A DNA stretch of 32,000 nt from Corynebacterium glutamicum ATCC 13032 (GCF_000011325.1 NC_003450.3:1080001-1112000); one strand, 5' to 3'; counted from the first letter of the stretch, positions 4,380-26,082 are shown. Made by a program: numbers and translations. Notes: generated from the letters alone by a model not told the origin.

Positions 4380-5465
4380 GTGACCCTTACTCTTGGAATC
4401 GTCGGCCTGCCCAACGTTGGCAAGTCCACCCTGTTCAACGCCCTGACTCGCAATGACGTGCTCGCAGCGAACTACCCGTTCGCCACCATCGAGCCAAACG
4501 TGGGCCTTGTCGAGCTTCCAGACGCTCGCCTTGAACGCCTTTCTGAAATCTTCGGCTCTGAGCGCATCCTGCCAGCAACCGTGTCTTTCGTTGACATCGC
4601 CGGAATCGTTAAGGGAGCTTCCGAAGGCGAAGGAATGGGCAACGCTTTCCTTGCCAACATCCGCGAAGCAGACGCTATCTGTCAGGTTGTGCGCGCATTC
4701 GCTGACGAAAACGTCATTCACGTCGATGGTGAAGTTAACCCAGCAACCGATATCTCTGTGATCAACACCGAGCTGATCCTCGCCGACCTGCAGACCGTGG
4801 AAAAAGCACTCCCACGCCTCGAAAAGGATGCACGCAAAGACAAGGGACTTGGCGAAGTCGTAGATGAGACCAAAAAAGCCCTTGCGATCTTGAGCGATGA
4901 CCGCACCTTGTTCTCTGCAGCAAAAGCTGGCGACATTGATCTGGCCCTCCTGCGCGATCTCCACCTGATGACAGCAAAGCCTTTCCTCTACGTCTTCAAC
5001 TCCGACGAAAAAGTGCTCACCGACGACGCCAAGAAGGACGAACTCCGCGCACTAGTCGCGCCAGCAGACTGCGTATTCCTTGACGCACAAACTGAAACCG
5101 AACTTCTTGAACTCGAAGAAGACGAAGCAGCAGAACTCCTCGAAGCTGTAGGCCAAACGGAACCAGGCCTACACTCCCTCGCACGTGCAGGATTTGAAAC
5201 CCTCGGACTACAGACCTACCTCACCGCGGGTCCTAAGGAATCACGCGCCTGGACCATCCACAAGGGCGACACCGCTCCACAGGCAGCAGGCGTTATCCAT
5301 TCTGACTTCGAACGCGGCTTCATCAAGGCTGAAATCGTCTCCTTCGAAGATCTTGACGCTGCTGGTTCCATGGCGGAAGCCAAGGCCCAGGGCAAAGTCC
5401 GCCAAGAAGGTAAGGACTACGTGATGGTCGATGGCGACGTTGTGGAGTTCCGGTTTAACGTCTAG
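4380..5465 (+). CDS. ychF: Redox-regulated ribosome-binding ATPase YchF (Obg-like)
   Basis: TLTLGIVGLPNVGKSTLFNAL P-loop, and a C-terminal TGS-like end ...DGDVVEFRFNV. The likely start is GTG 4380 (or GTG 4374); the ORF-track TTG 4362 adds residues not typical of YchF. Confidence 0.95.
   Translation: MTLTLGIVGLPNVGKSTLFNALTRNDVLAANYPFATIEPNVGLVELPDARLERLSEIFGSERILPATVSFVDIAGIVKGASEGEGMGNAFLANIREADAICQVVRAFADENVIHVDGEVNPATDISVINTELILADLQTVEKALPRLEKDARKDKGLGEVVDETKKALAILSDDRTLFSAAKAGDIDLALLRDLHLMTAKPFLYVFNSDEKVLTDDAKKDELRALVAPADCVFLDAQTETELLELEEDEAAELLEAVGQTEPGLHSLARAGFETLGLQTYLTAGPKESRAWTIHKGDTAPQAAGVIHSDFERGFIKAEIVSFEDLDAAGSMAEAKAQGKVRQEGKDYVMVDGDVVEFRFNV
5442..5465 (+). repeat. Direct repeat copy A (authentic ychF 3' end, GTGGAGTTCCGGTTTAACGTCTAG)
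   Basis: Encodes VEFRFNV plus the stop codon. The same 24-mer recurs at 6943-6966 and, diverged, at 7620-7643. Confidence 0.9.
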
Positions 5466-5498
5466 CGTTATTGACGCTCCTCGTTATACGCTGGTCTC

Positions 5499-5780
5499 GT
5501 GATCAGATCGTTCGCCGACCGCGACACCGAGTTGGTCTGGTTGCGTGAAGGTGCGAAACGCGTCGATCCGCGAATACACAAAGTGGCGAATCGGAAGCTG
5601 CATCTGCTGGACGCGGCGACGACCCTCGATGCTCTGCGTGTGACTCCGGGGAATCGCCTGGAAACGCTCGAGGGTGATCGAGTCGGTCAGTACAGCATTC
5701 GAGTCAACGACCAGTGGCGGATCTGCTTCCGTTGGAACGACTCGGGCCCCGAAAACGTCGAGATCGTGGATTATCACTGA
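5499..5780 (+). CDS. higB: HigB-type toxin (RelE/ParE superfamily, plasmid-maintenance killer)
   Basis: 93 aa. MIRSFADRDTE...LEGDRVGQYSIRVNDQWRICFRW...VEIVDYH matches the HigB pattern (KxF..., GDR.G.WSIR.N..WRI.F, ..DYH end). GTG start. Confidence 0.85.
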   Translation: MIRSFADRDTELVWLREGAKRVDPRIHKVANRKLHLLDAATTLDALRVTPGNRLETLEGDRVGQYSIRVNDQWRICFRWNDSGPENVEIVDYH

Positions 5781-5790
5781 GGAGGAGACG

Positions 5791-6090
5791 ATGGCTCAGA
5801 AGCTCTACCCGCCGATTCACCCTGGTGAGATTCTCATGGAGGACTTCATCAAGGGCTTCGGCCTCACACAGAACAAGGTCGCCGTATCGATCGGGGTGCC
5901 TCCGCGACGCATCAACGAGATCGTGCACGGCAAGCGATCCATCACGGCCGATACGGCTCTGCGTCTCGGGCGGTACTTCGGTATCGACCCGCAGTTCTGG
6001 CTGAGCCTTCAGACTCAGTACGAGTTGGAGCTCGATCGCGACGCCGGTGCAGCGACTTACGCACAGATCACGCCGCTGAAGGTCGCGTGA
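5791..6090 (+). CDS. higA: HigA-type antitoxin (XRE helix-turn-helix)
   Basis: MAQKLYPPIHPGEILMEDFIKGFGLTQNKVAVSIGVPPRRINEIVHGKRSITADTALRLGRYFG is the classic HigA/VapI motif. GGAGGAG RBS lies 3 nt upstream of ATG 5791, which is 10 nt after the higB stop. Confidence 0.85.
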   Translation: MAQKLYPPIHPGEILMEDFIKGFGLTQNKVAVSIGVPPRRINEIVHGKRSITADTALRLGRYFGIDPQFWLSLQTQYELELDRDAGAATYAQITPLKVA

Positions 6091-6920
6091 GCTCGGTGGC
6101 CAGAAAACATCTGCTCTCCCTGGCAGACTGGAACAGAGGCGAGCTTGAGGCATTATTCGAGCTCGCGGAGCAGTATGAAGCTGGCGGTGGGCCACGATTC
6201 GATGGTGCCGCGGCGATGTTCTTCCCGCCGACGAGTTTGCGTACACGGCTCTCATTCGAGCGTGGGGCAACGGCAATGGGACTCCAGCCGATCACGTTCC
6301 CGTCAGACAGCCTGGACAAGGACGAAGATCTCGTCGACGTCGTCGGCTATCTCTCGCAGTGGGCTGATGTCGTTGTCGTCCGACACCCGCAATTGACGGC
6401 GCTTCAGCGGTTGGCGTCAGCGGATGCAGCGCCCGTGATCAACGCGATGACGAGTGAGAACCATCCGTGCGAAGTCCTCTCGGACTTGTATGCGCTGTCT
6501 CGTCACCATGACATTTCGGCCCTGCGGTACCTGTTTGTCGGTGGCGATGGCAACATCGCCAGGGCCTGGTGGGAGGCGGCCCAAGCGTTCGGCCTCGAGA
6601 TGCGGCAGAGTTGTCCTGAAGAGCTGCGTGTCGTCGGGATGCCGTGGGAGGAGAACCTGCCGCATGCAATTGCATCAGCGGATGTCGTGCTGACGGATGG
6701 GCCAGGTAGACATGCGGAGTTACTCGAGCCGTATCGTGTGACCGCTGCGTTGTTGGATCGCGCGCCCCGTGGAGTGCGGCTCGCGCCCTGCCCGCCGTTC
6801 ATCCGCGGGCGCGAAGTGAGCGCCGATGCGATCGAGCATCCGGCGTTCGTCGGGTACTCGTTCAAGCGTCATCTCATGCCGGTTCAGCAGGCGATTCTGG
6901 CTCGGTCGATCAATGCGTAG
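6087..6920 (+). CDS. Short, divergent aspartate/ornithine carbamoyltransferase-fold protein
   Basis: 277 aa. SLRTRLSFE (compare STRTR), HPCEVLSDL (compare HPxQ), LAPCPPF (compare HCLP). N-terminal KHLLSLADWNRGELEALFELA resembles OTCase. The GTG start overlaps the higA stop (GTGA). Confidence 0.65.
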   Translation: MSSVARKHLLSLADWNRGELEALFELAEQYEAGGGPRFDGAAAMFFPPTSLRTRLSFERGATAMGLQPITFPSDSLDKDEDLVDVVGYLSQWADVVVVRHPQLTALQRLASADAAPVINAMTSENHPCEVLSDLYALSRHHDISALRYLFVGGDGNIARAWWEAAQAFGLEMRQSCPEELRVVGMPWEENLPHAIASADVVLTDGPGRHAELLEPYRVTAALLDRAPRGVRLAPCPPFIRGREVSADAIEHPAFVGYSFKRHLMPVQQAILARSINA

Positions 6921-6942
6921 CGGTTTTCGGTGTCGGAACTCG

Positions 6943-6966
6943 GTGGAGTTTCGGTTTAACGTCTAG
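6943..6966 (+). repeat. Direct repeat copy B of the ychF 3' end (23/24 identical)
   Basis: GTGGAGTTTCGGTTTAACGTCTAG, preceded by CGGAACTCG, which also precedes copy C. A weaker partial echo (GTTCCGGTTCAACC) follows at about 6971-6984. Confidence 0.85.
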
Positions 6967-7040
6967 TCGCGTTCCGGTTCAACCTCTTGCACAAGCGTCG
7001 GCCCCTGAAAGGAGCCGGCGCTGGTGTTCTCAGTTCGCTA

Positions 7041-7544
7041 CTACTCAAACGTCATCCCGAGAACCGTCCGGACGGGAATGTTTCCGCCATGGTCGTCTGC
7101 CAGTCGATGCATACCGAGCTTTCGGGCGACGCGTTCCGAAGCTTCGTTCTCGGGGTGGATGATGGCGACCAACTCGGGTGAGCCTACAACGTCGCGTGCG
7201 TAGTCGCGGCATGCAATGGCGGCTTCGGTCGCGTAACCGAGGCCCTGCCTTGCGGTGACGACGTGGTAGCCGACCTCGAGCTTGGGTGCGCCATTCACCT
7301 CTTGCCACGTGAGGCCGCAGTCGCCAACGAACTCGCCGTGGATCGTCTCGACGATCCATAGGCCGTAGCCGTGCTCCGCGTAGTTCTCTTCATTCCAAGT
7401 GATCCACCTGGCTGCCTGCTCGCGTGTTTTCGCGGAGGGGTAGAAACGCATCACTTCAGGATCCCCGAGCATGTCGGCCATGAGATCGATGTCAGCAGGC
7501 CGCTTGCGGCGGAAGCGGCGGCGTTGGGTATTTGGCGGAGTCAC
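7041..7544 (-). CDS. GNAT family N-acetyltransferase (RimJ/RimL-like)
   Basis: 167 aa. LGDPEVMRFYP...GLWIVE...GEFVGDCGL...VGYHVVTARQGLGYATEAA...HPENEASERVARKLGM is the typical Acetyltransf_3-type motif order. Confidence 0.85.
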   Translation of the reverse strand: MTPPNTQRRRFRRKRPADIDLMADMLGDPEVMRFYPSAKTREQAARWITWNEENYAEHGYGLWIVETIHGEFVGDCGLTWQEVNGAPKLEVGYHVVTARQGLGYATEAAIACRDYARDVVGSPELVAIIHPENEASERVARKLGMHRLADDHGGNIPVRTVLGMTFE

Positions 7545-7619
7545 TGGTTCAGCGTAGTTGCGGGGAGGCCTCGGTCCAAAAGTTGGCTGAGGTTAGAGGT
7601 TGGTATCCGCCGGAACTCG

Positions 7620-7643
7620 GTGGAGTTCAAGTTCAACGTGTGA
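7620..7643 (+). repeat. Direct repeat copy C, a diverged ychF 3' end
   Basis: GTGGAGTTCAAGTTCAACGTGTGA reads VEFKFNV plus a stop, the same peptide tail as ychF with one substitution and silent changes. It is preceded by CGGAACTCG, as copy B is. Confidence 0.75.
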
Positions 7644-7660
7644 CGGGCGCAGAAGAGTGG

Positions 7661-8316
7661 TCAGTCGCGGGGGACGCCAGTCGCTCGAGTGATCACTGGG
7701 TCGAACTGGCGATCGGTGAGGATGTTGCGCGAGGCAATCAGCGGTTTGGCACCGAAGCCGATGGCATAGCGGGTCTTGGGGTGACGTGCCGTCACGGCCT
7801 TTCCAATCGCATCGGCGACAACCGACGGTGGTGAGTTGCGGTTGCTGTTCGCCTCAGATCGCAACGACTTCGATACTGCGTCAGCCTGGCGCTTGTATGC
7901 GCTGTCTTTCGACACTGCGTCGAGATTGTCGGCAGCGATTCCTCCCCACTCGGTGGCGATGCCGCCCGGTTCGATGACAACAACGTCGATGCCGAATGGG
8001 GCGACCTCCAGGCGGAGGGCGTCCGAGAGGGCCTCGAGGGCGAACTTGGTGCCGTGATACCAGCCGCCGAGAGGCGTGTAGATCTTCCCGCCCATCGATG
8101 TGATGTTCACGATCGTCCCCCACTTTTGTTTCTGCATGTGGGGCAGGACGAGTCGGGTGAGGGCCATCGCGCCGAATACATTGACCTCGAACTGGCGACG
8201 GCCTTCATCGATTGTCATCGGTGACGTCCATCTCGAGGGGGTGGATCCCGTCTGAAGCGAGCTTTTGGGGGCGCTCTGTCCTGCGGGCAGCACCGTAGAC
8301 GGTGAAGCCGAGTGAT
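7661..8316 (-). pseudogene. Short-chain dehydrogenase/reductase (classical SDR), decayed
   Basis: The C-terminal two thirds are intact (RRQFEVNVFG...NITSMGG...YHGTKFALEAL...VVVIEPGGI). An upstream piece, SLGFTVYGAARR...LEMDVTDDN, lies in another frame with about 35 codons missing between them. The TGxxxGIG N-terminus is cut off at 8316 by the ISL3 repeat. Confidence 0.8.
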
Positions 8317-8358
8317 GGCTCTTCCGGTTTTAGAGTGCACTCTAAAACCGGAAGAGCC
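8317..8358. repeat. Perfect 42-bp palindrome made of two ISL3-type terminal inverted repeats with no body between them
   Basis: GGCTCTTCCGGTTTTAGAGTGCACTCTAAAACCGGAAGAGCC. Its first 22 nt are identical to the terminal repeat of the ISL3 remnant at 15371-15392. The flanking 8-mers differ (CGAGTGAT versus ACTAAAAC), so there is no target duplication. Confidence 0.8.
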
Positions 8359-8361
8359 ACT

Positions 8362-9940
8362 AAAACCCCTGTGTCCACTTTCCGGGGGGTGTTCCTATAT
8401 AGGTTGTCAACTCCGTGGGTGAGGTTGCTGGGGGTGTGAAGGGGTTCTGCTTCACGCTGCGGATGTTGTTTTCGGGCATGCTGAAGAGCCGATTGGGCTT
8501 CCTGCACAATCGGCTTCGGGGCTTGTAGGGGCTAGGCCGCTGCGGCCTCCTGGGCTGTGGGGATGTCTCTGTAGAGCTCTCCGCTGCGCATCATGGCGAA
8601 GAGGACGTTGAGGCGTCGGCGTGCGAGCGCGACGACTGCGGCGTTGTGTCTTTTGCCTTCGTTGCGTTTTCGTTCATAGAATTGCCGGGAACGCTCGTGG
8701 AATCTGATCGATGCAAAAGACGACTGCCATAGGGCGTTCTTCAATTTCTTGTTGCCGGCCCGGTTGGGCGAATTCGACATGATCGACGTTCCCGACTGAT
8801 TTGTCTGCGGCGACAGGCCTGCATAGGACGCCAGGTGCGCTGCATCGGGAAAGTCGGACATATCGCCGACGGTCATAAGGATTTGCGCGGCGCTACGTGG
8901 GCCGATGCCGGGCATGGACAAGAGAATCTCGGTCTGAGGAATGTCCTGGATCAGCTCGAGTACCTGGCCTTCAATCTCTTTGCGGTGCTCCAGCTTGGCT
9001 AGTGCATCTTTGGCGGACATTGCTACGCCAAGTTCCGCGTATTCTGCGCCGGCGATGGATACCGTCTGGCCGTGGATCGCAGCAAGCATGGCATCGATAA
9101 CTGGCTCAGGATTACGTGCCCTGTGACCACGTGCGAAAGCTGCCAGCCGTGCTTTGCCGACGCGTCGAATCTTGGTGGGGCCACCGTATTTCGCCAGAAG
9201 GTGGAGAATCCACTTGCGGTGAATCATCTGCCCACGCAGGACATGTTCGAATGCGGGGTAGGTGCCCACGAGCGCGGATTGCATCTGGTTGATCAGGCGT
9301 GTGTAGGCGCGGGCGAGGTCTTCGTCGATACCGTTGAGGACTTTCAGCTGGAGGAAGACTTCCTCAACGCGGTCGACGCTACGCAGGGCATCCGGAAGGT
9401 TGAGGCCGGCATGGGCGATGACATAAGCGTCCCGTACATCGGTCTTGGAGTTGCCGACGTGGATACGTGAAAGTTGTCGCATGGCAAGCCCGGGGAGGTA
9501 GCGAACGTCGGCTCCCATTGCTTGGGCGACTGCGACGGTTAGCCTGCCGATGTTGTTGGGCTGATCGACGACGACAAGGACCTCGGCGTCATTGGCCAGG
9601 AATTTGTCGAAGAGCTTGCGTAGCGAGCCTTCGTGTTGGTTGATGCGTTTGGATAGGACTTGTCTGCCCTGGGGATCGAGGACGCAGGCGTGGTGGAAGT
9701 ATTTGCCGACGTCCATTCCAATGACGAAGTCATAGGCCATGAGTCTGTGCCTCCTAGCGATGAGTAGGGAGTTGGATTATTTACGCTTCATCGCTGGGGT
9801 GGTCGGACATACTTGTGCTGGCATCCACATTACTGTGAGACCTCGTGCCTCCTGGGCCGGGTCAGGTTCCTATTAGCAGTTTGAGTATGTCACTGTCTTC
9901 GGCGGCATCACCCCCCGGATCATTTTCAGACAGGGACAGG
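8362..9940 (-). mobile_element. IS110-family insertion sequence; ends approximate
   Basis: One DEDD-type transposase gene. It is bracketed by an 11-bp perfect inverted repeat, TCCGGGGGGTG 8381-8391 versus CACCCCCCGGA 9909-9919. The repeat extends imperfectly outward (CCCTGTGT 8367-8374 versus the reverse complement of 9927-9934, CCCTGTCT). The size, about 1.58 kb, is typical for the family. Confidence 0.75.
8532..9740 (-). CDS. IS110 family transposase/recombinase (DEDD RuvC-like N-domain plus C-terminal transposase_20 domain)
   Basis: 402 aa. MAYDFVIGMDVGKYFHHACVLD...VVVDQPNNIG...KTDVRDAYVIA...MPGIGPRSAAQIL...LASYAGLSPQTNQSGTS...GNKKLKNALW are hallmark IS110 motifs. Confidence 0.95.
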   Translation of the reverse strand: MAYDFVIGMDVGKYFHHACVLDPQGRQVLSKRINQHEGSLRKLFDKFLANDAEVLVVVDQPNNIGRLTVAVAQAMGADVRYLPGLAMRQLSRIHVGNSKTDVRDAYVIAHAGLNLPDALRSVDRVEEVFLQLKVLNGIDEDLARAYTRLINQMQSALVGTYPAFEHVLRGQMIHRKWILHLLAKYGGPTKIRRVGKARLAAFARGHRARNPEPVIDAMLAAIHGQTVSIAGAEYAELGVAMSAKDALAKLEHRKEIEGQVLELIQDIPQTEILLSMPGIGPRSAAQILMTVGDMSDFPDAAHLASYAGLSPQTNQSGTSIMSNSPNRAGNKKLKNALWQSSFASIRFHERSRQFYERKRNEGKRHNAAVVALARRRLNVLFAMMRSGELYRDIPTAQEAAAA

Positions 9941-10162
9941 AATAAACCATACCGAAGCCAGCGACTAGTTCCACTGTCCTTTCGGACGGCGGGAACGGAC
10001 ATAAACATAGTCCGCCCTCTCGGGTGGACGGACTATGAATCTTCGGTGCCCTGGGGTGGAACTGCTAACAACGTAATGGGCAGGCCCAAAAGAATACTTT
10101 AAAAGGATAAGATTTATATGACAGCCTGATTCACATTGTAAAAGCCCTATTCTCCGTGAAGG

Positions 10163-13100
10163 ATGACGATTGCTGTGAATACGACCAGTCGTTGGCTACT
10201 TGCCAATTCCAGTGACCCCTTGTTGTATCGAGACAGTTCACTGCTGGTTGCTTTGTTGCGTCAGATTGTCTTTGCGTTCGCGTATTTGATTGCTGTAATT
10301 GGCTCATACTCACTGGTATACGGCGATTCGTTAGTCGCAATTGTGTGGCCATCAGTGGGAATCGCTGTGTGGTGGGCCGTGACCTGCAGAAGCTGGAAAA
10401 ACTTCGCCCTGATTTGTGGATACGTGTTTCTAGTCCCAGCCATATACCTGCACTTTTTTGCGGAAACCTCCCTCAGGGGAGTGATTCTGGCAGGAATTGC
10501 GCACGCTATCGCAGGTCCTGGCGTTGCACTGGTTATGGCATTCATGGAAAATGCGCAATTGCCAGAACTGTTGCGTAAACGGCATGCATTCGCACCCTTC
10601 TCCCATATTCGCCTTCCAGGCGATGTATTCCGGCTCCTCGTCGCGGGCATTGTCATGGTCGCAATATCCAAATTGATTGTGATTCTTGCTTATGCACTGG
10701 CAGATTTGCCGTATTCATTCACCCTTTATCTGACGATGGCCCTTCGTGACTTGACTGGCATTATTGTGGTTGCCGGGCCCGGAATTGCACTTTCGACGCC
10801 GCTGGTACTAAATATTCACCGATCAGCATGGCGCGAGTTCGCAGTTGTTATCATAGCTACGGTCGGAGTGCTGGCGCTCATTTTCGGATTTGCTGTGGAT
10901 CTTCCGACGGTCTACTTGGCAATGTTGCCATTGTATTGGAGTGCAACCCGTCTTCCAGTGCTTTTAGCCGTTCTTCATGCGGTGTTTACTTCAGCAATAG
11001 TCGTAATTCTGTATTTCCTATTAGGTACCGGATCTTTTGCGATTACGGATGAATCCATACTGGTGCAGGCAACGACAATTCAGCTTTTTGTTCTGATGTG
11101 TATCTTGTTGTCGCTAGTTGTGTCAACGACAGTCCAGCAGACATCAGCACTGGTTGAAGAGCTAGAGGTGGTAGCGAAGACCCTTCCTGATGCGCTTTTT
11201 ATCGTAAACAAAAATGGAACAGCATTTCCTGTTAACGCAGGCGCGAAAAATTTCGTCAAGCAATCACCGGATGGGCATTATTCCATGCCGAAACTACAGA
11301 ATATAGACGGTGAACCCATGGATGAGAAAGAAAGTCCGAGCAGTATGGCCTTGCGTGGACAAGGTGTCGAAGGAGTATTAGCCAAGTTAGGTGAAGTACT
11401 GGGAGAAGATCCGGACTTGGCGCGTCGAATCTTCGAAATTAGTGCCTCACCGATGTATCTGCGTGGAGAAACTGAACCGGGTCATGCGCTCGTGATTTGG
11501 CATGACAGTACTAATGAGTATTACACGATGCAACAATTGACGCTTGCATATGAAGAATCGCGGCTGCTATTTGAAAAAGCCCCTCAAGGGATTGCCATGC
11601 TGGACCCTTCGGGAGAAATCGTAATGGCGAATCGATCCTTTGGTGACTTGGTGGGAACGACTCCTGTTCGACTCCTAGGACGAAATCTAGAGGATTTCGG
11701 AGTAGAGGAGGGAACCATGGAATACGTGACCCCTGTTCTGTCGGACCCAGAAGCCGTTGTGCACTTAGATCGTTCGCTCGAAACATTGAGAGGTAAACAG
11801 AAAAACGTTGCTATGTCATTTAGCTCGATGGGCAATGTTGGAGGCAGAATCGGAACTTTACTCGTTAATGTTGTCGATGTAACCGAGCGCCAAGAACTCA
11901 TCGAGCTTGTGGAGCATTTGGCGGATCATGACTCCCTGACAGGATTGGTCAATCGCAGGCGGCTGGAATCTGATATCGAAGAGCTTATCCTCAAGAATGA
12001 ACGCGATTCGACCGATAGTGCATTGTTGCTTTTGGATCTGGATTACTTCAAGGAAGTTAATGATTCCCTCGGCCATGAGGCTGGTGACCAGTTGCTTATT
12101 GAGTTTGCTGAGATCCTCAAAGACAGCGTGAGGGATTCCGACATTGTCGGACGCATCGGCGGCGATGAATTCGTTATTGTTTTGCCTGACACAGACAGGG
12201 ATGGCGCTGAAGCAATCGGTATAAGAATTATTGAGTTGGTCAATCAGCACTTCAAAGGCCGAGGAAAAGTGTTATCGCGGGTGTCAGTAAGTATCGGCGG
12301 GACGCTCTTTTCTGATGCTCGTGCCCAAGGTGTGAATCCATTCATTCTTGCTGATCAGCTGCTTTACGATGCTAAGCACGCAGGTAGAAATCGGGTTGCG
12401 GTGCGCAGAGCTGAAAACACCATTGTCCGCTCAGCTAAGCCCGCATTCTCAGTTGAGGAACTTTCGGAGATCCTGGAGTCACATTCTATTCGCCTCGAGC
12501 TGCAGCCGATCCTAGAACTTGAAACAGGTCGGGTGGGTGCAGCCGAAGGTCTGCTCCGAATCAACTTGGATGGCACCGATGTTCCTACGGGGCAGTTTGT
12601 TCAGTCGGTTGAACAGGCCGGGCTAGCCCCGAAGCTTGATATCGCAGTCATGAGAGAAGGAATTAATCATATTGAGAGGCTGAGAGCTGTGTGTCCGACT
12701 TTCAGCCTCGCTTTGAATCTGTCGGGCTATTCTCTGAGCTCGGCGAAAATACGGGAGGAACTAAGAGCCGAATTTAGAGCTCGCGATCTGCCAAGGGGAT
12801 CAATTAGGTTTGAGATTACTGAGACCGCTCCGATTGAAGACATTGACGCGGCAAAAGAGTTTGTGCAGATGTTGAAAGATTTTGGCTTCCACATCGTAAT
12901 CGATGACTTTGGCGCAGGACATGAGCCTTATCAATATCTAAAGAAGTTCGACTTTAGCGTGCTGAAGATTGCAGGTGAATTCATAGAAGGTATGGTCACC
13001 AACCGCGTGGACCGAAGCATCGTCGAATCTATTGCTCAACTTGCTAAGGATGAGGAGATGGAAACTGTCGCCGAGTTTGTTTCAAGCAAGGAGATTTTGG

Positions 13101-13219
13101 AGGCGGTACGAGAGATAGGCGTAACGTACGCCCAGGGTTTCCATATTGGTAAATCTAAGCCGATTGATGAATTTATAGCTACTTATCTCGAGACGAACCA
13201 AACCGCTACCTGGGGGTAG
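10163..13219 (+). CDS. Membrane sensor diguanylate cyclase/phosphodiesterase (MASE1-like 8-10 TM domain, 2 PAS, GGDEF, EAL)
   Basis: 1018 aa. The N-terminal polytopic domain has VAIVWPSVGIAVWWAV (MASE1-like). PAS-like LFEKAPQGIAMLDPSGEIVMANRSF. RIGGDEFVIV with an RDSD I-site 5 residues upstream. EAL domain motifs EITETA, DDFGAGHEPYQYL, LKIAGEF, QGFHIGKSKP. Confidence 0.9.
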   Translation: MTIAVNTTSRWLLANSSDPLLYRDSSLLVALLRQIVFAFAYLIAVIGSYSLVYGDSLVAIVWPSVGIAVWWAVTCRSWKNFALICGYVFLVPAIYLHFFAETSLRGVILAGIAHAIAGPGVALVMAFMENAQLPELLRKRHAFAPFSHIRLPGDVFRLLVAGIVMVAISKLIVILAYALADLPYSFTLYLTMALRDLTGIIVVAGPGIALSTPLVLNIHRSAWREFAVVIIATVGVLALIFGFAVDLPTVYLAMLPLYWSATRLPVLLAVLHAVFTSAIVVILYFLLGTGSFAITDESILVQATTIQLFVLMCILLSLVVSTTVQQTSALVEELEVVAKTLPDALFIVNKNGTAFPVNAGAKNFVKQSPDGHYSMPKLQNIDGEPMDEKESPSSMALRGQGVEGVLAKLGEVLGEDPDLARRIFEISASPMYLRGETEPGHALVIWHDSTNEYYTMQQLTLAYEESRLLFEKAPQGIAMLDPSGEIVMANRSFGDLVGTTPVRLLGRNLEDFGVEEGTMEYVTPVLSDPEAVVHLDRSLETLRGKQKNVAMSFSSMGNVGGRIGTLLVNVVDVTERQELIELVEHLADHDSLTGLVNRRRLESDIEELILKNERDSTDSALLLLDLDYFKEVNDSLGHEAGDQLLIEFAEILKDSVRDSDIVGRIGGDEFVIVLPDTDRDGAEAIGIRIIELVNQHFKGRGKVLSRVSVSIGGTLFSDARAQGVNPFILADQLLYDAKHAGRNRVAVRRAENTIVRSAKPAFSVEELSEILESHSIRLELQPILELETGRVGAAEGLLRINLDGTDVPTGQFVQSVEQAGLAPKLDIAVMREGINHIERLRAVCPTFSLALNLSGYSLSSAKIREELRAEFRARDLPRGSIRFEITETAPIEDIDAAKEFVQMLKDFGFHIVIDDFGAGHEPYQYLKKFDFSVLKIAGEFIEGMVTNRVDRSIVESIAQLAKDEEMETVAEFVSSKEILEAVREIGVTYAQGFHIGKSKPIDEFIATYLETNQTATWG

Positions 13220-13226
13220 GAAGAAT

Positions 13227-14696
13227 ATGAAAAAGAAGAGCTTTCCAATCGCAAGAGTCATCGGTATCGGCGTCCTTGGCATCGCCGGGATGGGAATATT
13301 GTTGCTATGGCTTGCAGTTACCCTGTCTGATCCAGCATCACCGGGTGCCAAAGAAACCGAAGTCTTTGATAGGTGGAAAGTGCTCTTTGATGACTATATT
13401 CCACCAGTCAGGGTATTGGTTGCTGCGATTATCGTTGCATTAATTTTCGTCTTTATCGCTGCCACAGTGGAACGAACCGTAACCAACCGCTACCGAAGCT
13501 CCGTAGACGGCGAAAGAGTGCCATTAGCGCCGAAGATTGTGATGGCAGAAACCCGAGGGGTATTTCATGGACCGATTACCATTAACGTGCTCGTGCCAGC
13601 ACACAATGAGGCGGAAAGAATTACTGGAACAATTCAGGCATTGAAATCACAACATGAGCCTCCAGAACGCATCGTTGTAGTTGCCGATAATTGCACTGAT
13701 GAAACTACGGAATTAGCCCGTGCTGAGGGAGTGGAGGTCTTGGAAACAGTCAATAATAAGTTTAAGAAGGCCGGAGGACTCAATCAGGCTTTGAGCCGGA
13801 TGCTTCCCACATTGGGGGAGAATGACATTGTGATGATCGTTGACGCTGATACAGCACTTGATCAAGGTTTCCTCAAGGAAGCACGGCGCCGCTTTGAGTC
13901 TGATCGCGCTCTAATGGCCGTGGGCGGATTGTTCTACGGTGAGTCAGGCTCCGGATGGCTTGGCCAATATCAGCGCAACGAATACACCCGTTATAGCCGT
14001 GACATCTATCGACGCCGCGGACGTGTGTTTGTTTTGACTGGAACAGCGTCGGCTTTTCGGCCACGCGGCCTGCGGACAGTAGCGGAATCACGCGGGACAT
14101 TGATCCCCGGACGTAAAGGCGATGTTTATGACACCGCGGCGTTGACCGAAGATAATGAGTTGACCCTGGCTTTGAAATCACTCGGAGGGCTTATGGTGTC
14201 ACCCAATGAGTGCTCAGTAGTGACAGAAGTGATGCCGACTTGGAGAGAATTATGGCATCAAAGGCTTCGATGGCAACGCGGTGCGCTGGAAAACCTCGGT
14301 GCTTATGGCATCACACCACAAACGACACGGTATTGGTTCCAGCAGCTGGGAATCGGTTACGGCGCATTAGCCTTGGTCGCCTATTTCGCAGTCATTATCA
14401 TTACGTTTCTCGCCCGCGATCAATGGATCTGGTATCCATTCTGGATGCTGCTGGGACTGTTGTTCATGATTGAACGCGTGCTAACGGTGTGGAGATCCAC
14501 ATGGTTTGCCAGGTTTGTTGCTGCGTTATTAATCCCAGAGCTCATCTACGCCAGCTATCTCAACCTGGTATTTCTCAAAGGCGTTGTGGATATTCTATTG
14601 GCCAAGCAAGCTCACTGGGGTGAGCATGGTGACAAGACAATGCAGGTAGCCGATGCAGCTGCCGAAATTAACGATGAAGGGGAGGAACGCCGATGA
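13227..14696 (+). CDS. Membrane-embedded processive family-2 glycosyltransferase (PgaC/IcaA/NodC/cellulose-synthase-like polysaccharide synthase)
   Basis: 489 aa. Two N-terminal TM helices. VLVPAHNE, VVVADNCTDET, IVDADT (DxD), LTEDNELT (TED), HQRLRWQRGALE (QxxRW), then 3-4 C-terminal TM helices. The start is 8 nt after the sensor gene stop, with AGGAAG as RBS. Confidence 0.9.
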   Translation: MKKKSFPIARVIGIGVLGIAGMGILLLWLAVTLSDPASPGAKETEVFDRWKVLFDDYIPPVRVLVAAIIVALIFVFIAATVERTVTNRYRSSVDGERVPLAPKIVMAETRGVFHGPITINVLVPAHNEAERITGTIQALKSQHEPPERIVVVADNCTDETTELARAEGVEVLETVNNKFKKAGGLNQALSRMLPTLGENDIVMIVDADTALDQGFLKEARRRFESDRALMAVGGLFYGESGSGWLGQYQRNEYTRYSRDIYRRRGRVFVLTGTASAFRPRGLRTVAESRGTLIPGRKGDVYDTAALTEDNELTLALKSLGGLMVSPNECSVVTEVMPTWRELWHQRLRWQRGALENLGAYGITPQTTRYWFQQLGIGYGALALVAYFAVIIITFLARDQWIWYPFWMLLGLLFMIERVLTVWRSTWFARFVAALLIPELIYASYLNLVFLKGVVDILLAKQAHWGEHGDKTMQVADAAAEINDEGEERR

Positions 14697-14914
14697 TCTT
14701 TTCAGAAGAGATTCTCCATACCGACTGGTTCGCAGCACTTGCTGCTTTCGTCGCGATTAACACAACAATCTATGTGGTTCTTGCTATTGCCAAGACGCTG
14801 CCGAAGATTTATGTCACTGACTACTTACCGCGGAATTATGAGCGTGCTGAGACACGCAGCATTTATCCAGACGTTGAAGAACCGAAAAGGAAGAAGTCTG
14901 AGAAGAAGGATTAG
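14693..14914 (+). CDS. Small (73 aa) single-TM protein with a Lys/Glu-rich tail, translationally coupled to the glycosyltransferase
   Basis: ATGA start/stop overlap with the upstream gene and GGAGGA 6 nt upstream. TM segment WFAALAAFVAINTTIYVVLAIA. I recognise no family. Confidence 0.6.
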   Translation: MIFSEEILHTDWFAALAAFVAINTTIYVVLAIAKTLPKIYVTDYLPRNYERAETRSIYPDVEEPKRKKSEKKD

Positions 14915-15051
14915 GGCGGATAACGAATGCGCACGGCTTCAACCATTGTTTAGGCAACTCCCGACGATAATTCAGGTACCTCGTTCCTTCAATTTGAGGT
15001 CGTCGTTCGACTAGGTAGCAAGCAGTAGATTGAGTCCATTAGAGGGTTGAG

Positions 15052-15370
15052 ATGGCTACTTCGGCACTGAAATTTTTGCTGCTTGGGTTTGGCGCGATTG
15101 GTCGCCAACTTGTTACGCTCTTCGACGAGGGAGAGTTTGGAGTCGAGGCGTTTACCCGTGCTGTCTCCCCACACATTGCGCATGGGACTTTGGGAATTGA
15201 GCTGTATGACGACCAACTGCCCAAGCTCATCGCAGACAGCGGCAGTGTGGTCGAAGTAGCACACGGCAAGGATCTCGTTCTGACGTCGGTGGGCGCGCTA
15301 GCTGAGCAGGTCGTGCGACAAGCGCTACTTGTAGGTTCCGGGAAAGTGCACGTGACTTCGGGCGCAATCG
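15052..15370 (+). pseudogene. Aspartate-dehydrogenase-like (NAD-binding, DUF108-type) gene, 3'-truncated by the ISL3 end
   Basis: LLLGFGAIGRQL Rossmann start ...LTSVGALAEQ...VHVTSGAIG. The reading frame then runs straight into the ISL3 terminal repeat at 15371, and the remainder of the gene is absent. Confidence 0.6.
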
Positions 15371-16340
15371 GGCTCTTCCGGTTTTAGAGTGCGTTGATTT
15401 TGTGGGTGAGTTGTCCGGAGTGGATGAGACAGTGCAGGATGTAGTGGTTGAGGTTGCGAAATCCTAGGGCGATTCCGCGGAGGTGTTCGAGTCGTCCGTT
15501 GATTGCTTCTACGGGTCCGTTAGAGATTCCGACATCGAAATACGCCAGGATGTCACCGAGGCGTTTGTGTAGGCTGCGGCCTAGTTGTGCAAGTTCTCGA
15601 TTCGCTTGTCCTTTCAGTAGCCGCATCTGGTCAACAATCTCGCGCATCATGGTCTTTGCGCGGCGTTTATCGGCCATGTTGTATCAGTCAATAATGCCTT
15701 GATACGCCTGCCACATCAGTTGCAGTGCCGCGTAGTCTTTATCAAAGCTAAACAACTCATCAAGACGCTTTGCTTTTTCTTACTCAACCATTTTTGCGTG
15801 GTCAGCAAGGTTTTCCGGTTCTTATACAACGGGTCATCATGCAAACCCCGCCGGTGGTATTTTTCCTGCTGCAAACGTTGTCGGCATCGGGTGAGTTTAT
15901 CGCCGGCGAGGAGTACCACGTGGAAAGGATCCATGACTCGGCGTGCGGCGGGCAGAAGTTGTTTGCTGGTTGTGGCATAGCCTTGGAATCCATCCATAGT
16001 TACAATGCGTACTTGGTGTCGAAATGCTGGGCTTCGGCGTGCAAGCCACGCCCGCAACGCATCAGCACTGCGGCCTTCGACTACATCAAGCAACCTCGCT
16101 GGGGACGTGGCATCGCGGTGGAAGGCTGGTCATATTAACAATGACGGTGACATAGCCATCACCATGTTTTAATCGGTTATGAGATCATTTGTGCTCATCG
16201 ACGCCAATAACGTGCACAATTTCTAGGTGGGTGGGGTCGTAGTAGATGAGTTCGTGGCACATATCTAGGGCTAGTTGGCAGGTGAGATCCCAGCCTAGAC
16301 CGAGGGCTTTCGCGGTTGCTGCGATACTCATACGGTCGAT
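15371..16340 (-). mobile_element. ISL3-family insertion sequence remnant (IS31831-like); one end intact, the other deleted
   Basis: Terminal repeat GGCTCTTCCGGTTTTAGAGTGC at 15371-15392. Transposase fragments lie on the minus strand in three frames. The N-terminal third of the transposase (about 125 aa) and the second terminal repeat are missing. Confidence 0.85.
15384..16335 (-). pseudogene. ISL3 family transposase, multiply disrupted
   Basis: Fragments: RLDIDRMSIAATAKALGLGWD...VIGVDEHKW; (frameshift near 16095) LLDVVEGRSADALRAWL...MDGFQGY...MDPFHVV; (frameshift in an A-run near 15775) ...LQLMWQAYQGIID; TGA at 15684-15686 where Trp is expected; then YNMADKRR...SNGPVEAINGRLEHLRGIALGFRNLNHYILHCLIHSGQL. 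Confidence 0.85.
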
Positions 16341-16750
16341 GTCGAGGCGTTACAATCGATGTTGTCGAATAAGGCGATTTCGAGTTTGAAAACTGTGTGA
16401 CCATTGCGTTCGTAGAGGATATTTGGATTTCTGGCATCAAGCATTGCTTGGTCATGTTCATCGACGAACATGTTGTCGTAGCCGTGTTTCCCGCCGTCGA
16501 AAACCGTGATTTCTTCGTCGGTGTCAGTCGCCTTCGCGATGACAATGATCGGCTCGTCATCTGTGCGGACAAGAAGCTCGTAATGTTCGAAGATAGTGCC
16601 GTTGTGCTACAGCTCGAACTTCGTGCCGCTGTTTGAAGAATGCAAGGTTAGCGTGCGACCGAAATCTTGGGTGGTTAATGTGGCGTGACCTCCAAGGTGT
16701 GATGGAATTGGCTCGTTCCAAGTCGAATTCTGTCCAGCTGTTTTAGGCAT
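16340..16750 (-). pseudogene. Unknown protein gene coupled to the SUKH gene; in-frame TAG and 3' truncation
   Basis: ATG 16750 overlaps the SUKH gene end by 8 nt. Reads MPKTAGQNSTWNEPIPSHLGGHATLTTQDFGRTLTLHSSNSGTKFEL, then TAG (16607-16609), then HNGTIFEHYELLVRTDDEPIIVIAKATDTDEEITVFDGGKHGYDNMFVDEHDQAMLDARNPNILYERNGHTVFKLEIALFDNID. It ends abruptly at the ISL3 fragment. Confidence 0.5.
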
Positions 16751-17111
16751 CCTCAAGTTCAGTTTCGATCAGGGGTTCATCTTCGTGCGACCAGATGTAG
16801 AAAGCATCATCGTCGGGAAGCAGAATTATTAAGTCGCCCGTTCCGTCATTTGCAATTGCGATCGCATTTTCGGGGAAATTGTCCCATTCACGTGCAGATT
16901 CGGTCTCGCGGATGATGTCGTTGGCAGTTCGGACAAGCCTTTTTCGGTCGCTGTCATCACGAACTGGATGGAGAATCCAGTCGTTGTTTTCATTGTCGAT
17001 GACTTCGCCACCATTGTTTTGAAGTAGTCGTTCGCGCAAAGTTTCGGGGAGGCGCCTGCCAAGGGTTTCCTCAGCTGCCAGGATTTTGTCTTCTGTCACG
17101 GGGAAAGCCAT
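16743..17111 (-). CDS. SMI1/KNR4 (SUKH-1) family protein, immunity-protein type
   Basis: 122 aa. ILAAEETLGRRLPETLRERLLQNNGGEV...WILHPV...IAIANDGTGDLIILLPDDDAFYIWSHE matches the SUKH-1 pattern (LP..Y..FL...NGG, ...IPFA.DG.GN..C.D). Confidence 0.8.
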   Translation of the reverse strand: MAFPVTEDKILAAEETLGRRLPETLRERLLQNNGGEVIDNENNDWILHPVRDDSDRKRLVRTANDIIRETESAREWDNFPENAIAIANDGTGDLIILLPDDDAFYIWSHEDEPLIETELEDA

Positions 17112-17228: not shown

Positions 17229-17729
17229 GTGGCGTCGCCAGAGAATATTCTCTTGTATCTTCCCGAAAAGGAAGAACAGCAGGTGCGGGAGGTGTTTGCT
17301 GGTCTGGAGGAGCAAGGGTTTCCCGTCCAGAATCAAAAACCACACATCACTATTACTTTTTCTCCCTCGATGCCAGACGATGTTGTGCAGCGAGCCTCGG
17401 AGCTGCTTCCACCTGTGATGCCAGCCAGATTCGCGCGCGTTGGAACAGTGGTATTTGGAACCAAGCGAAAACAAACCGTGGCGTGGCTGTTGGAAACATC
17501 TGAAGAACTAGAGGAAGTTGCGAGGAATATTAGCGCACTTAATCCGAACGGGCGTGGGCAACGTTGGGTTCCTCACTTAACTATGGGGTTGCGGCTTCCG
17601 AGGGAGATTGTTCCCGATTACATTCGAGCCTTGGATGAGGTGACGTCGCCGCATTTCAAAGAGTTCACCGCAACAACGGCTGCATATTGGCGACCTAAAA
17701 TTCATCACCTCACCGTTTTTAAGGCTTAG
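17229..17729 (+). CDS. 2H phosphoesterase superfamily protein (LigT/2'-5' RNA ligase-like cyclic phosphodiesterase)
   Basis: 166 aa with the two diagnostic Hx(T/S) motifs, PHITITF and PHLTMGL, at the expected spacing. GTG start. Confidence 0.7.
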   Translation: MASPENILLYLPEKEEQQVREVFAGLEEQGFPVQNQKPHITITFSPSMPDDVVQRASELLPPVMPARFARVGTVVFGTKRKQTVAWLLETSEELEEVARNISALNPNGRGQRWVPHLTMGLRLPREIVPDYIRALDEVTSPHFKEFTATTAAYWRPKIHHLTVFKA

Positions 17730-26058: not shown

Positions 26059-26082
26059 GGCTGTGGTGCTCCTTAAAACCAG

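Follow-up and report, generated by a model that had tools for sequence, protein, structure and literature searches.

A gene block in Corynebacterium glutamicum encoding a c-di-GMP turnover enzyme, a GT2 synthase and a small membrane protein: a candidate module for polysaccharide synthesis

In this study we describe three adjacent genes of Corynebacterium glutamicum which probably form one operon and would together constitute a self-contained c-di-GMP signalling-and-output module. They encode a membrane-bound protein for c-di-GMP turnover, a membrane-integrated GT2 synthase and a 73-aa membrane protein. Control of the synthase by c-di-GMP is suggested by the linkage of the genes, and we assign this explanation as a whole a probability of about 0.6. 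An earlier interpretation, made from the DNA alone and called here the sequence-only reading, had proposed such a machine, and comparison of genome sequences supports it as a candidate. The features of the block and its flanks are listed in Table 1; the window is the whole 32-kb stretch of DNA that was analysed.

Table 1. Features of the gene block and its flanks (positions counted from the first letter of the window)
Feature	Position	Strand	Evidence
IS110-family transposase (cg1178), upstream boundary of block	8532..9740	-	DEDD_Tnp_IS110 + Transposase_20
Apparent mobile unit	10089..15231	.	blastn
Membrane-bound c-di-GMP turnover protein, MASE1-PAS-GGDEF-EAL, 1018 aa	10163..13219	+	ORF, Pfam, exact match
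MASE1 integral-membrane sensor domain, aa 32-327	10256..11143	+	PF05231, 172 bits, E = 2e-50
PAS domain, aa 467-577	11561..11893	+	Pfam PAS_4, PAS_9, PAS, PAS_8 matches
GGDEF diguanylate cyclase domain, aa 587-744	11921..12394	+	PF00990, 142 bits
EAL phosphodiesterase domain, aa 765-997	12455..13153	+	PF00563, 183 bits; ortholog alignment
Membrane-integrated processive-type GT2 synthase, 489 aa	13227..14696	+	ORF, Pfam, AF2, Foldseek, hhalign, exact match
N-terminal TM helix pair, aa 8-33 + 61-90, beta-hairpin between	13248..13496	+	AF2 secondary structure
GT-A catalytic domain + interface helix, aa 118-360	13578..14306	+	pLDDT >90 (co-fold), invariant columns, E. coli PgaC alignment
C-terminal TM helices, aa 364-457, presumed polymer channel	14316..14597	+	AF2 helices 364-397, 402-422, 426-465
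73-aa single-TM partner protein (cg1182)	14693..14914	+	ORF, alignment, exact match
TM helix of 73-aa protein, aa 12-35	14726..14797	+	alignment; helix 500-524 of concatenated model
Tail motif R51-A-E-T-R55-S-I-Y-P-D60, includes RxxxR	14843..14872	+	alignment, motif scan
ISL3-family transposase in two ORFs (cg1184), downstream of block	15384..16093	-	DDE_Tnp_ISL3

The three genes and their products

The block extends from the gene following cg1178 (locus tag from PMC12113857) through cg1182. The sequence-only reading had described three co-oriented genes of 1018, 489 and 73 aa in a Corynebacterium-type genome, and indeed all three ORFs lie on the plus strand and their products are identical to C. 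glutamicum entries. Of the junctions that it gave as 8 and -4 nt, the second is a 4-nt ATGA overlap as stated, whereas the first is a gap of 7 nt (13220-13226). Because of this short gap, the overlap, the Shine-Dalgarno-like sequences before the second (AGGAAG) and third (GGGGAGGAA) start codons, and the lack of terminator-like sites at either junction or directly past the small ORF, we take the genes to form one operon. Within the genes, the number of weak 5-6-bp hairpin matches is close to expectation (9 versus 4.9 +/- 2.0 in shuffles), and no c-di-GMP riboswitch was found.

The first product is identical to AGT05032.1 of strain MB001, whose annotation reads putative membrane protein or EAL domain protein. 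The score of its MASE1 domain lies above the gathering cutoff of 29.8. Two PAS domains had been expected from the sequence; MASE1, one PAS, GGDEF and EAL were recovered, but the second PAS (about aa 340-460) has no Pfam match. Both catalytic sites look intact at the sequence level. The GGDEF motif is unaltered and follows an RxxD I-site (RDSD) placed five residues upstream; among 12 aligned orthologs the motif (RIGGDEF or equivalent) is intact in all and the I-site is lost in only two. The canonical EAL catalytic set (E, R, N, ExxE, DD, K, E, Q), at positions assigned as catalytic after RocR and TBD1265, is complete and kept across the ortholog alignment, where the EAL motif itself reads EGL, EAL or EVL.

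The second product, cg1181, is identical to AGT05033.1 and probably corresponds to cg1180+cg1181 of the old reference annotation. It matches the Pfam models Glyco_tranf_2_3, Glycos_transf_2 and Glyco_trans_2_3. The hallmarks of synthase-translocases noticed earlier (DxD, TED, QRLRW, TM helices on both sides of the catalytic domain) were all recovered. D154/D158, D206-A-D208, T307-E308-D309 and Q345-R-L-R-W349 do not vary among 41 homologs, and hhalign places them on the corresponding motifs of PgaC and BcsA; they lie in the GT-A domain, as does an Arg cluster (R262-R264/R266). In the AF2 model (pTM 0.72) two N-terminal and three to four C-terminal helices flank the catalytic domain, and the N-terminal pair is followed by a conserved basic juxtamembrane linker with invariant E82, R90, R91 and S92, then PLAPKxVMxxTRG. 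Since pLDDT is 43-75 in the C-terminal helices, confidence there is low to moderate. The best Foldseek matches were BcsA (E = 2.6e-12), Xenopus and Chlorella-virus hyaluronan synthases, PcManGT and chitin synthase 2 (Chs2), at E values of 1e-12 to 1e-8 and TM-scores of 0.43-0.51, with only moderate confidence in the TM region. With hhalign, E. coli PgaC reached 98.7% probability (E = 2.4e-16), BcsA 92.8% over the GT core only, and NfrB 7%. By both methods the protein groups with processive membrane synthases and not with soluble or non-processive GT2s, the non-processive cell-wall glycosyltransferases considered in the sequence-only reading included. With this fold and these motifs it would act as a processive synthase-translocase. 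The best NCBIfam model is PgaC_IcaA, and assignment as a PgaC_IcaA equivalog (TIGR03937) was rejected at 67.8 bits versus a cutoff of 422.3. Cellulose synthase was rejected as well (CelA model, 21 bits versus a cutoff of 699; no PilZ, no BcsB).

The third product is identical to AGT05034.1 and is translationally coupled to the GT2 by the ATGA overlap. In agreement with its first description as a single-TM protein with a tail, it has one TM helix with the conserved core L-A-A-F-V-A-I-N-T-x-x-Y, followed by a conserved R-x-E-T-R-S-I-Y-P-D tail, for which the positive-inside rule predicts a cytoplasmic location. Conservation within the protein is highest in the tail motif (R51, T54, R55, I57 and P59 invariant; E53, S56, Y58 and D60 at least 90% conserved), which was found in 17 loci in a motif scan. 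The protein defines an actinobacterial family that has no name yet and comprises about 300 clusters (308 among 1.84 billion representatives), nearly all of which are standalone proteins of 50-170 aa. A homolog lies directly 3' of every subfamily GT2 whose downstream DNA is on the contig, and in loci L014-L017 the GT2 C-terminus continues in frame into the equivalent TM segment. In a co-fold with the GT2 the partner helix reaches a pLDDT of about 60 and the tail less than 50, and therefore the co-fold does not place the tail motif. A relationship to PgaD was rejected (hhalign probability 1.7%).

As had been noted at the outset, PilZ, deacetylase and export genes are absent from the 32-kb window, and BcsB has no match there either. 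Anchoring or modification genes were found neither in the operon nor in the window, and polysaccharide deacetylases of the PgaB/IcaB type neither among the window ORFs nor in related loci with Pfam calls. Pfam and NCBIfam searches for a recognised c-di-GMP receptor domain (PilZ, MshEN, degenerate GGDEF/EAL) gave no match.

Conservation, linkage and transfer

Co-conservation of the three genes outside C. glutamicum, on which the sequence-only reading had laid weight, is seen in several actinobacterial genera: the trio is present in other Corynebacterium species, Brevibacterium, Dietzia, Epidermidibacterium, Aestuariimicrobium, Nocardioides and uncultured Actinomycetota. A GGDEF-EAL gene adjoins the pair of GT2 and small protein in 16 of the 19 assessable loci of the subfamily with the tail motif versus 0 of 24 loci of distant subfamilies without it, the loci of neither group being phylogenetically independent. 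This adjacency extends over at least four orders. The sensor part varies by lineage (MASE1-PAS, or PAS only) and in Dietzia kunjamensis the GGDEF-EAL gene is divergently oriented. Microlunatus (L009), Acidimicrobiia (L036) and Nocardioides BP30 (L082) have the pair with the tail motif and no adjacent GGDEF-EAL gene. The identities of GGDEF-EAL and GT2 proteins co-vary (r = 0.68; Mantel 0/5000), and dN/dS relative to Corynebacterium sp. J010B-136 (L002) is 0.30 for the sensor, 0.21 for the GT2 and 0.19 for the 73-aa protein. The module is under purifying selection and its partners co-diverge.

The segment listed in Table 1 as an apparent mobile unit is 96% identical in nucleotide sequence to Corynebacterium sp. 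J010B-136 by blastn, as against 71-77% for the syntenic flanking genes. The module has been recently exchanged between Corynebacterium species, and the block appears to move as one unit. It lies between IS elements, as the sequence-only reading had it, with the IS110-family element upstream and ISL3 fragments downstream; the ISL3 element is strain-variable in C. glutamicum (missing from L090 and L091, present in L092). The block had also been called AT-richer than the backbone. This holds in relation to the DNA just upstream (58-62% GC versus 47-52% in the block) but not to the downstream flank, which has about 51% GC. Most members of the family occur in monoderm actinobacteria.

Proposed mechanism and competing explanations

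We propose that the MASE1-PAS-GGDEF-EAL protein is a membrane sensor capable of both synthesis and breakdown of c-di-GMP. The GT2 would polymerise a nucleotide sugar at the cytoplasmic face and thread the chain through its own TM channel. The 73-aa protein would be an obligatory extra subunit, with one TM helix packed on the synthase and a short cytoplasmic tail, a role that we infer because of its universal co-occurrence, the translational coupling and the natural in-frame fusions. Most likely c-di-GMP would act post-translationally on the complex of GT2 and small protein, as in PgaCD, and candidate contacts are the RxETRSIYPD tail and the basic loop of the GT2 corresponding to PgaC R222. The product would most likely be a beta-linked homopolymer; PgaC makes poly-beta-1,6-GlcNAc but is too remote, so that the sugar cannot be named. 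The module may have been acquired and recently exchanged horizontally among Corynebacterium species, and in mycolate-free actinobacteria it lies among housekeeping genes. Overexpression of SigD in C. glutamicum raises cg1181 expression and leads to aggregation and secretion of insoluble carbohydrate, data which are correlative, two other glycosyltransferases being induced as well (PMC5508688).

More tentatively, the tail of the 73-aa protein might be a new minimal c-di-GMP-sensing element acting in trans, which would gate or stabilise the synthase when c-di-GMP rises. One TM helix and a tail of about 25 residues would then do the job of BcsA TM8-RxxxR-PilZ or of PgaD. Rather unlikely, in our view, is the same machine with a purely structural 73-aa protein, i.e. 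an IcaD-like helper or a detachable last TM helix, in which c-di-GMP would be sensed by the basic loop of the GT2 or through direct, local contact of the GGDEF-EAL protein with the synthase, as for DgcJ-NfrB. The natural fusions fit such a helper, as they retain the TM segment and drop the RxETRSIYPD tail. R262-R264 and R266, which vary little or not at all, align beside PgaC R222 (PMC10333796), but the cluster is partly kept in subfamilies without a DGC neighbour and is therefore not diagnostic. The MASE1-bearing DGC and the synthase are both membrane proteins encoded side by side, and locally acting DGC-synthase pairs have precedent (PMC8669469). However, the tail motif is the best-conserved part of the 73-aa protein and is confined to the subfamily with GGDEF-EAL neighbours, which would be unexpected for a mere structural helix.

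It is distinctly improbable that the genes are only neighbours, with a c-di-GMP-independent synthase, a GGDEF-EAL protein that controls other targets (e.g. GlgX-type enzymes or transcription factors) and a GT2/small-protein pair regulated by transcription alone, for example within a SigD cell-envelope regulon. The lack of a recognisable receptor domain and the three subfamily loci without an adjacent DGC would agree with this, as would the response of cg1181 to SigD overexpression (PMC5508688), the function of staphylococcal IcaAD, a PgaC-like synthase with a small partner, without c-di-GMP (PMC8461298), and the reportedly widespread c-di-GMP control of GlgX in Actinobacteria (PMC9530166). Yet the genes have stayed adjacent in at least four orders even where the sensor domain or the orientation was swapped, GGDEF-EAL and GT2 co-diverge, the whole block transfers as one unit, and the window holds no match to a putative SigD-type promoter consensus. 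We consider it very unlikely that the GT2 makes a glycan retained in the cell envelope or periplasm (an OpgH-like osmoregulated glucan, for example, or a glycoconjugate anchored in the membrane) instead of a secreted exopolysaccharide, with c-di-GMP tuning envelope properties rather than a biofilm matrix. Such a product would suit an operon and window free of export, modification and anchoring genes, a host whose mycolic-acid outer membrane offers no obvious conduit, the C. glutamicum annotation of the GT2 as 'probably involved in cell wall biogenesis' and its co-induction with mycomembrane genes by SigD (PMC5508688). Against it, a translocated product would already be extracellular in the monoderm actinobacteria that hold most of the family, the biofilm polymer made by PgaC, its closest characterised relative, is a secreted one, and the carbohydrate obtained with SigD overexpression is secreted and accompanied by aggregation (PMC5508688).

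Relevance and relation to known systems

Synthase-dependent systems activated by c-di-GMP (Bcs, Pga, Pel, Alg, Nfr, Bgs, Pss) have a central place in biofilm biology, and how c-di-GMP activates PilZ-less synthases is still unresolved, PgaCD included (PMC8461298). In corynebacteria, c-di-GMP-dependent polysaccharide synthesis had been presumed uncharacterised, and our literature search found no such study and no published c-di-GMP study of C. glutamicum. The module described here is very small (one bifunctional enzyme, one synthase, one 73-aa partner) and widely conserved in Actinomycetota, and C. glutamicum is a non-pathogenic industrial host that is genetically easy to handle. Hence two questions could become directly testable: the role of c-di-GMP in Corynebacteriales, and the way in which a minimal synthase complex without PilZ reads the signal. 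If the tail indeed senses c-di-GMP, the three genes would make up the smallest c-di-GMP circuit for polysaccharide synthesis that is complete from input to output, and corynebacteria would have their first defined c-di-GMP output. There is practical interest as well: aggregation, foaming and surface polysaccharide have an influence on fermentations with C. glutamicum and on engineered production of hyaluronan (PMC7305114, PMC5508688). Even a c-di-GMP-independent module would provide a new small-subunit family for actinobacterial GT2 synthases.

The first gene has the same MASE1-PAS-GGDEF-EAL domain order as E. coli DgcE, whose model (PRK09776) is its best NCBIfam match, at 313 bits far under the cutoff of 1135 set for equivalogs. 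The EAL domain of DgcE is degenerate, whereas the EAL residues of the C. glutamicum protein are intact. The analogy to PgaCD drawn in the sequence-only reading is useful for the mode of working but fails for family membership. Both systems have a GT2 with a pair of TM helices on its N-terminal side and about three on its C-terminal side, a small membrane partner encoded immediately downstream, the QRLRW, TED and DxD motifs, and no PilZ. PgaC is the best-scoring characterised relative, yet with 24% identity over 262 aa, and PgaD, which has two TM helices, is unrelated to the single-helix 73-aa protein. The DGC gene dgcT stands beside the E. coli operon, whereas the C. glutamicum DGC/PDE gene is inside it, and the PgaB deacetylase and PgaA porin of the Pga system have no counterpart in the block. 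In E. coli, c-di-GMP binds the PgaC/PgaD complex and PgaC R222 is required (PMC8461298; PMC10333796).

BcsA is the best structural match of the GT2 and shares its catalytic motifs, but the C. glutamicum protein has neither the PilZ beta-barrel nor BcsB. In both systems an RxxxR follows the last TM helix, in C. glutamicum within the tail of a separately encoded last helix. In BcsA it is said, with reference to work of Morgan et al. from 2013/2014, to be the TM8-PilZ linker. NfrB uses a C-terminal MshEN domain, which is absent from the C. glutamicum GT2, as is the C-terminal domain of BgsA. E. coli NfrB-DgcJ and rhizobial BgsA are GT2 synthases that c-di-GMP activates via such non-PilZ elements, NfrB through a dedicated local DGC (PMC8669469) and BgsA through its own C-terminal domain (PMC5567048).

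By their description, dgcA-pdeA / gtsA-gtsB-pdeB of Lactobacillus acidophilus and Pss of Listeria are similar compact Gram-positive c-di-GMP clusters. They have dedicated receptors, in L. acidophilus the degenerate EAL protein PdeB and in Listeria PssE, a degenerate GGDEF protein, whereas the C. glutamicum trio has no recognisable one. These clusters combine c-di-GMP enzymes with a BcsA/PgaC-like GT2 and a domain-less membrane protein, which are thought to form a PgaCD-like complex (PMC6123363; PMC4125290). They rely on separate DGC and PDE proteins, whereas C. glutamicum has one bifunctional enzyme.

A compact operon between IS elements

The module is a compact operon. The sequence-only reading had described three co-oriented genes, and we found them as three forward-strand ORFs. 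It had put their junctions at 8 nt and -4 nt; the first proved to be a gap of 7 nt, while the second is indeed an overlap, formed by an ATGA stop/start. Sequences at Shine-Dalgarno distance precede the second start codon (AGGAAG) and the third (GGGGAGGAA). No terminator-like site was found at either junction or immediately 3' of the small ORF, and the weak intragenic hairpin matches were about as numerous as expected from shuffled sequences. Of the two PAS domains proposed for the first protein, Pfam recovered one and did not detect the second, at about residues 340-460. A PilZ or export gene, said to be missing, is indeed not present in the 32-kb window, nor is any other polysaccharide or c-di-GMP gene. 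The search for a c-di-GMP riboswitch or other RNA element gave none at E up to 0.1. A scan of the window for a SigD-type promoter (consensus GTAACR-N15-19-GAT) gave no match.

Features of the module and the adjoining IS elements (window numbering)
Feature	Position	Strand	Assignment or remark
MASE1-PAS-GGDEF-EAL protein, 1018 aa	10163-13219	+	ORF; Pfam
GT2 glycosyltransferase, 489 aa	13227-14696	+	ORF; three overlapping GT2 Pfam models
Small protein, 73 aa	14693-14914	+	ORF; nothing credible in Pfam
Intact IS110-family transposase, cg1178	8532-9740	-	Pfam; upstream of block
ISL3 transposase, two fragments of 97 and 125 aa, cg1184	15384-16093	-	downstream of block

All three proteins are identical to C. 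glutamicum entries (AGT05032, AGT05033 and AGT05034 of strain MB001), in agreement with the Corynebacterium-type genome recognised from the sequence; C. stationis and Corynebacterium sp. J010B-136 have versions that share 90% identity or more. In published tables cg1178 is the IS110 transposase, cg1181 a glycosyltransferase, cg1182 (the small ORF) a 'putative membrane protein', cg1183 a truncated 111-aa ORF and cg1184 the ISL3 transposase. The older reference record of C. glutamicum ATCC 13032 (BX927147) contains a 223-aa 'partial' glycosyltransferase, CAF19742.1, that equals residues 1-223 of the GT2 (window 13227-13895). Hence the GT2 gene, intact in the window, seems to have been divided into cg1180 and cg1181 in that record, whether by an error of sequencing or by a true frameshift of the stock used.

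As had been claimed, IS elements lie on both sides of the block, an IS110-family transposase upstream and ISL3 fragments downstream. The block was also said to be AT-richer than the backbone. This is the case relative to the DNA directly upstream (GC 47-52% versus 58-62%), but not relative to the downstream DNA (about 51%). Several other features of the surroundings were noted. An inverted repeat with a 12-bp stem (7 G-C pairs) at 10006-10037, about 125 nt 5' of the GGDEF-EAL start codon, could either be a repeat that belongs to an IS element or serve as terminator for the IS110 gene region on the minus strand. The ORF cg1183 (15052-15387, +; 'predicted dinucleotide-utilizing enzyme') has an NAD-binding-type N-terminus (LLGFGAIG) and no Pfam match, and its 3' end meets the start of the ISL3 fragment; it looks like a gene cut short by the ISL3 insertion. 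Just past the IS remnants lie genes for a SUKH/SMI1-KNR4 immunity-type protein (16743-17111, -) and a LigT-like 2'-5' RNA ligase/phosphoesterase (17229-17729, +). Further along, a stretch of low GC (21500-23500, 45-47%) may be another acquired islet; it holds an ORF of 199 aa that partly matches Double-GTPase 2 (22043-22642) and another that belongs to no assigned family (22695-23195). At 24100-27516 (-) an AAA_5 (MoxR-like) ATPase of 477 aa adjoins a VWA-domain protein of 652 aa.

The glycosyltransferase and its one-helix partner

The positions D154/D158, D206xD208, T307-E-D309 and Q345RLRW349 are invariant among 41 GT2 homologs. In sequence, all PDB entries were remote from the GT2; single sequence and profile alike gave weak matches in the N-terminal half of its GT domain only, and we therefore relied on a fold search for its placement. 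In the AlphaFold2 model (pLDDT 72, pTM 0.72) two helices precede the GT-A domain, and an interface helix and then three to four C-terminal helices follow it. With its invariant motifs and TM helices on both sides of the GT-A domain, the protein carries the synthase-translocase hallmarks first read from its sequence. Foldseek against the PDB ranked Rhodobacter and E. coli BcsA at the top (E about 1e-12), followed by vertebrate and Chlorella-virus hyaluronan synthases, the archaeal membrane mannosyltransferase PcManGT and chitin synthase 2, while soluble GT2s matched in the GT-A core only. In hhalign comparisons the GT2 family profile matched E. coli PgaC with 98.7% probability (E = 2.4e-16), BcsA with 92.8% and NfrB with 7%. 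The top NCBIfam model, PgaC_IcaA, scored 67.8 bits (cutoff 422), and BLASTP identity to PgaC was 24%. As to the clade, processive or non-processive, fold and profile matches favour membrane synthases. The fold matches, the hallmark motifs and the remote profile match to PgaC together lead us to regard the GT2 as a processive-type synthase of a separate actinobacterial family, with its activity predicted. PgaC is its nearest characterised relative, a relationship too remote to name the sugar.

For the 73-aa protein a word-indexed search returned 139 relatives and an exhaustive profile search 308 clusters. These relatives are nearly all 50-170 aa long, none has a Pfam domain, and where the source gives any name it is 'hypothetical protein' almost throughout. 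Among the 308 clusters no bigger domain was found around the tail motif; a lone 368-aa match looks like a frameshifted assembly. The alignment runs from a short N-terminal segment through one TM helix (LAAFVAINTxxY) and LPKIYxxD to the invariant tail R51-x-E-T-R55-S-I-Y-P-D, and the charge distribution suggests that this tail is cytoplasmic. Homology to PgaD was rejected by hhalign comparison.

The small protein is a conserved partner of the synthase. It lies directly 3' of the GT2 in every locus of the tail-motif subfamily with downstream DNA on the contig, and the two genes often overlap by 4 or 8 nt. In a sister subfamily, four genomes (Nocardioides sp. URHA0032 and uncultured Actinomycetota, L014-L017) have an equivalent TM segment joined in frame to the C-terminus of the GT2; the resulting proteins have 578-597 aa and no RxETRSIYPD tail, and their loci have no GGDEF-EAL neighbour. 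By the Rosetta-stone argument these natural fusions suggest that the small protein is part of the synthase. Downstream of more distant GT2s (35-47% identity; L024, L027-L029, L032, L033, L035) lies another kind of mini TM protein, about 50-70 aa long (99 aa in L032) and often beginning MYG, MYN or MYD. Since these distant GT2s have such a protein too, the pairing of a synthase with a one-helix protein seems to be a design used repeatedly in Actinomycetota.

Linkage to a c-di-GMP enzyme

The GGDEF domain of the window protein carries the GGDEF motif, the RxxD I-site and the residues for Mg and GTP binding, and the EAL domain retains E, R, N, ExxE, DD, K, E and Q. In an alignment of 12 orthologs the I-site is the one element that is sometimes lost. 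With the catalytic positions of both domains intact, the protein is probably a bifunctional c-di-GMP enzyme.

Its linkage to the synthase is conserved. A GGDEF-EAL gene adjoins the pair in 16 of the 19 tail-motif loci with enough flanking DNA and in 0 of 24 loci of distant subfamilies lacking the motif, the loci not being phylogenetically independent in either set. The trio is thus co-conserved beyond C. glutamicum, in several genera of Actinomycetota: the linked loci come from Corynebacterium species, Brevibacterium, two Dietzia, Epidermidibacterium, Aestuariimicrobium, Nocardioides sediminis and uncultured lineages. Loci of Microlunatus, Acidimicrobiia and Nocardioides BP30 have the GT2/small-protein pair and no neighbouring diguanylate cyclase gene. 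The neighbour's sensor part is MASE1-PAS in some loci and PAS only in others, and the GGDEF-EAL gene of Dietzia kunjamensis is divergent from the pair; this variation in sensor and orientation speaks for selection that keeps the genes paired and against frozen synteny. Between pairs of loci, identity in the GGDEF-EAL core correlates with identity in the GT2 (r = 0.68), a value reached by none of 5000 Mantel permutations.

As a mechanism we propose that the sensor protein would set c-di-GMP levels, that c-di-GMP would activate or stabilise the GT2/small-protein complex, and that this complex would polymerise and translocate a beta-linked polymer. Two sites might contact the nucleotide. In BcsA the RxxxR linker comes after TM8, and by analogy the small-protein tail, which contains RxxxR and likewise lies C-terminal to a TM helix, is one candidate. 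The other candidate is the GT2 loop R262-R264/R266, which aligns beside PgaC R222, a residue that a secondary review lists as necessary for PgaCD to bind c-di-GMP (PMC10333796). The Arg cluster was rejected as a marker of c-di-GMP-linked members, the basic patch being partly conserved in subfamilies without a diguanylate cyclase neighbour. In a co-fold of the concatenated GT2 and small protein, with alignment rows limited to distant GT2 homologs, the partner helix had a pLDDT of about 60 and the tail below 50; because the prediction is confident for the catalytic domain alone and leaves the tail unplaced, we draw no structural conclusion from it.

Published expression data touch the same genes. 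SigD overexpression in C. glutamicum induces cg1181, together with cg0420 and cg0532, and leads to aggregation and a secreted insoluble carbohydrate (PMC5508688), a correlative hint. In one of two comparisons of an MprAB study, cg1178, cg1182, cg1183 and cg1184 were all about 4-fold down together (PMC12113857), the region responding as one block; co-regulation may lie behind this, or a difference in the genomes of the strains under comparison.

Selection, mobility and comparison with known systems

Is the window copy a decaying remnant of horizontal acquisition? We rejected this possibility: the ORFs are intact, and the dN/dS values against Corynebacterium sp. J010B-136 are 0.30 (GGDEF-EAL gene), 0.21 (GT2) and 0.19 (small gene). 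In comparisons with distant orthologs, synonymous sites were saturated and pN remained at 0.14-0.42. A plasmid origin was likewise rejected, as megablast of the block against PLSDB gave no match. Window 10089-15231 is 96% identical in nucleotides to 4863-10004 of the J010B-136 locus, the inverted repeat at 10006-10037 sitting just outside, whereas the syntenic flanks at 4366-5487 and 17230-17656 are 77% and 71% identical. This difference indicates that the module was lately exchanged between Corynebacterium species at a syntenic site. Purifying dN/dS, block-wide identity and IS surroundings together point to a functional module with recent movement among corynebacteria.

The C. kalinowskii copy also has IS elements around it. 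In Epidermidibacterium the module lies near aroQ, among housekeeping genes, and in Aestuariimicrobium likewise, less close. The downstream ISL3 element, absent from two C. glutamicum genomes (L090, L091) and present in a third (L092), is a strain-specific insertion and probably a dead one, given this patchy presence and its split into two ORFs. Two other copies look like modules in decay: in Corynebacterium sp. L4757 (1448-5235 of the locus) MASE1 is missing from the GGDEF-EAL gene and the small ORF no longer has its start codon, and in locus L004 (6563-6593) the GGDEF-EAL gene is split over two frames around residue 545-553.

The sequence-only reading knew of no characterised c-di-GMP-dependent polysaccharide synthesis in corynebacteria, and in an incomplete coverage of the literature we too came across no publication that deals with this operon or with c-di-GMP in C. 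glutamicum. Being minimal and hosted by a tractable model organism, the module has its appeal, and the surprise to a specialist is moderate. Among known systems, PgaCD is its closest functional likeness. However, it falls below the PgaCD/IcaAD HMM cutoff, its small protein is not a PgaD homolog, and it lacks the deacetylase, as had been noticed from the sequence. It differs from BcsA in having neither PilZ nor BcsB. The compact Lactobacillus dgcA-pdeA/gts cluster and the Listeria Pss system are functionally similar as well. In E. coli K-12 (1084000-1094000) dgcT adjoins pgaABCD divergently, a looser linkage of cyclase and synthase than in the module. What is new here is the small-subunit family of a c-di-GMP-linked synthase system that has one bifunctional enzyme and no recognisable receptor domain.
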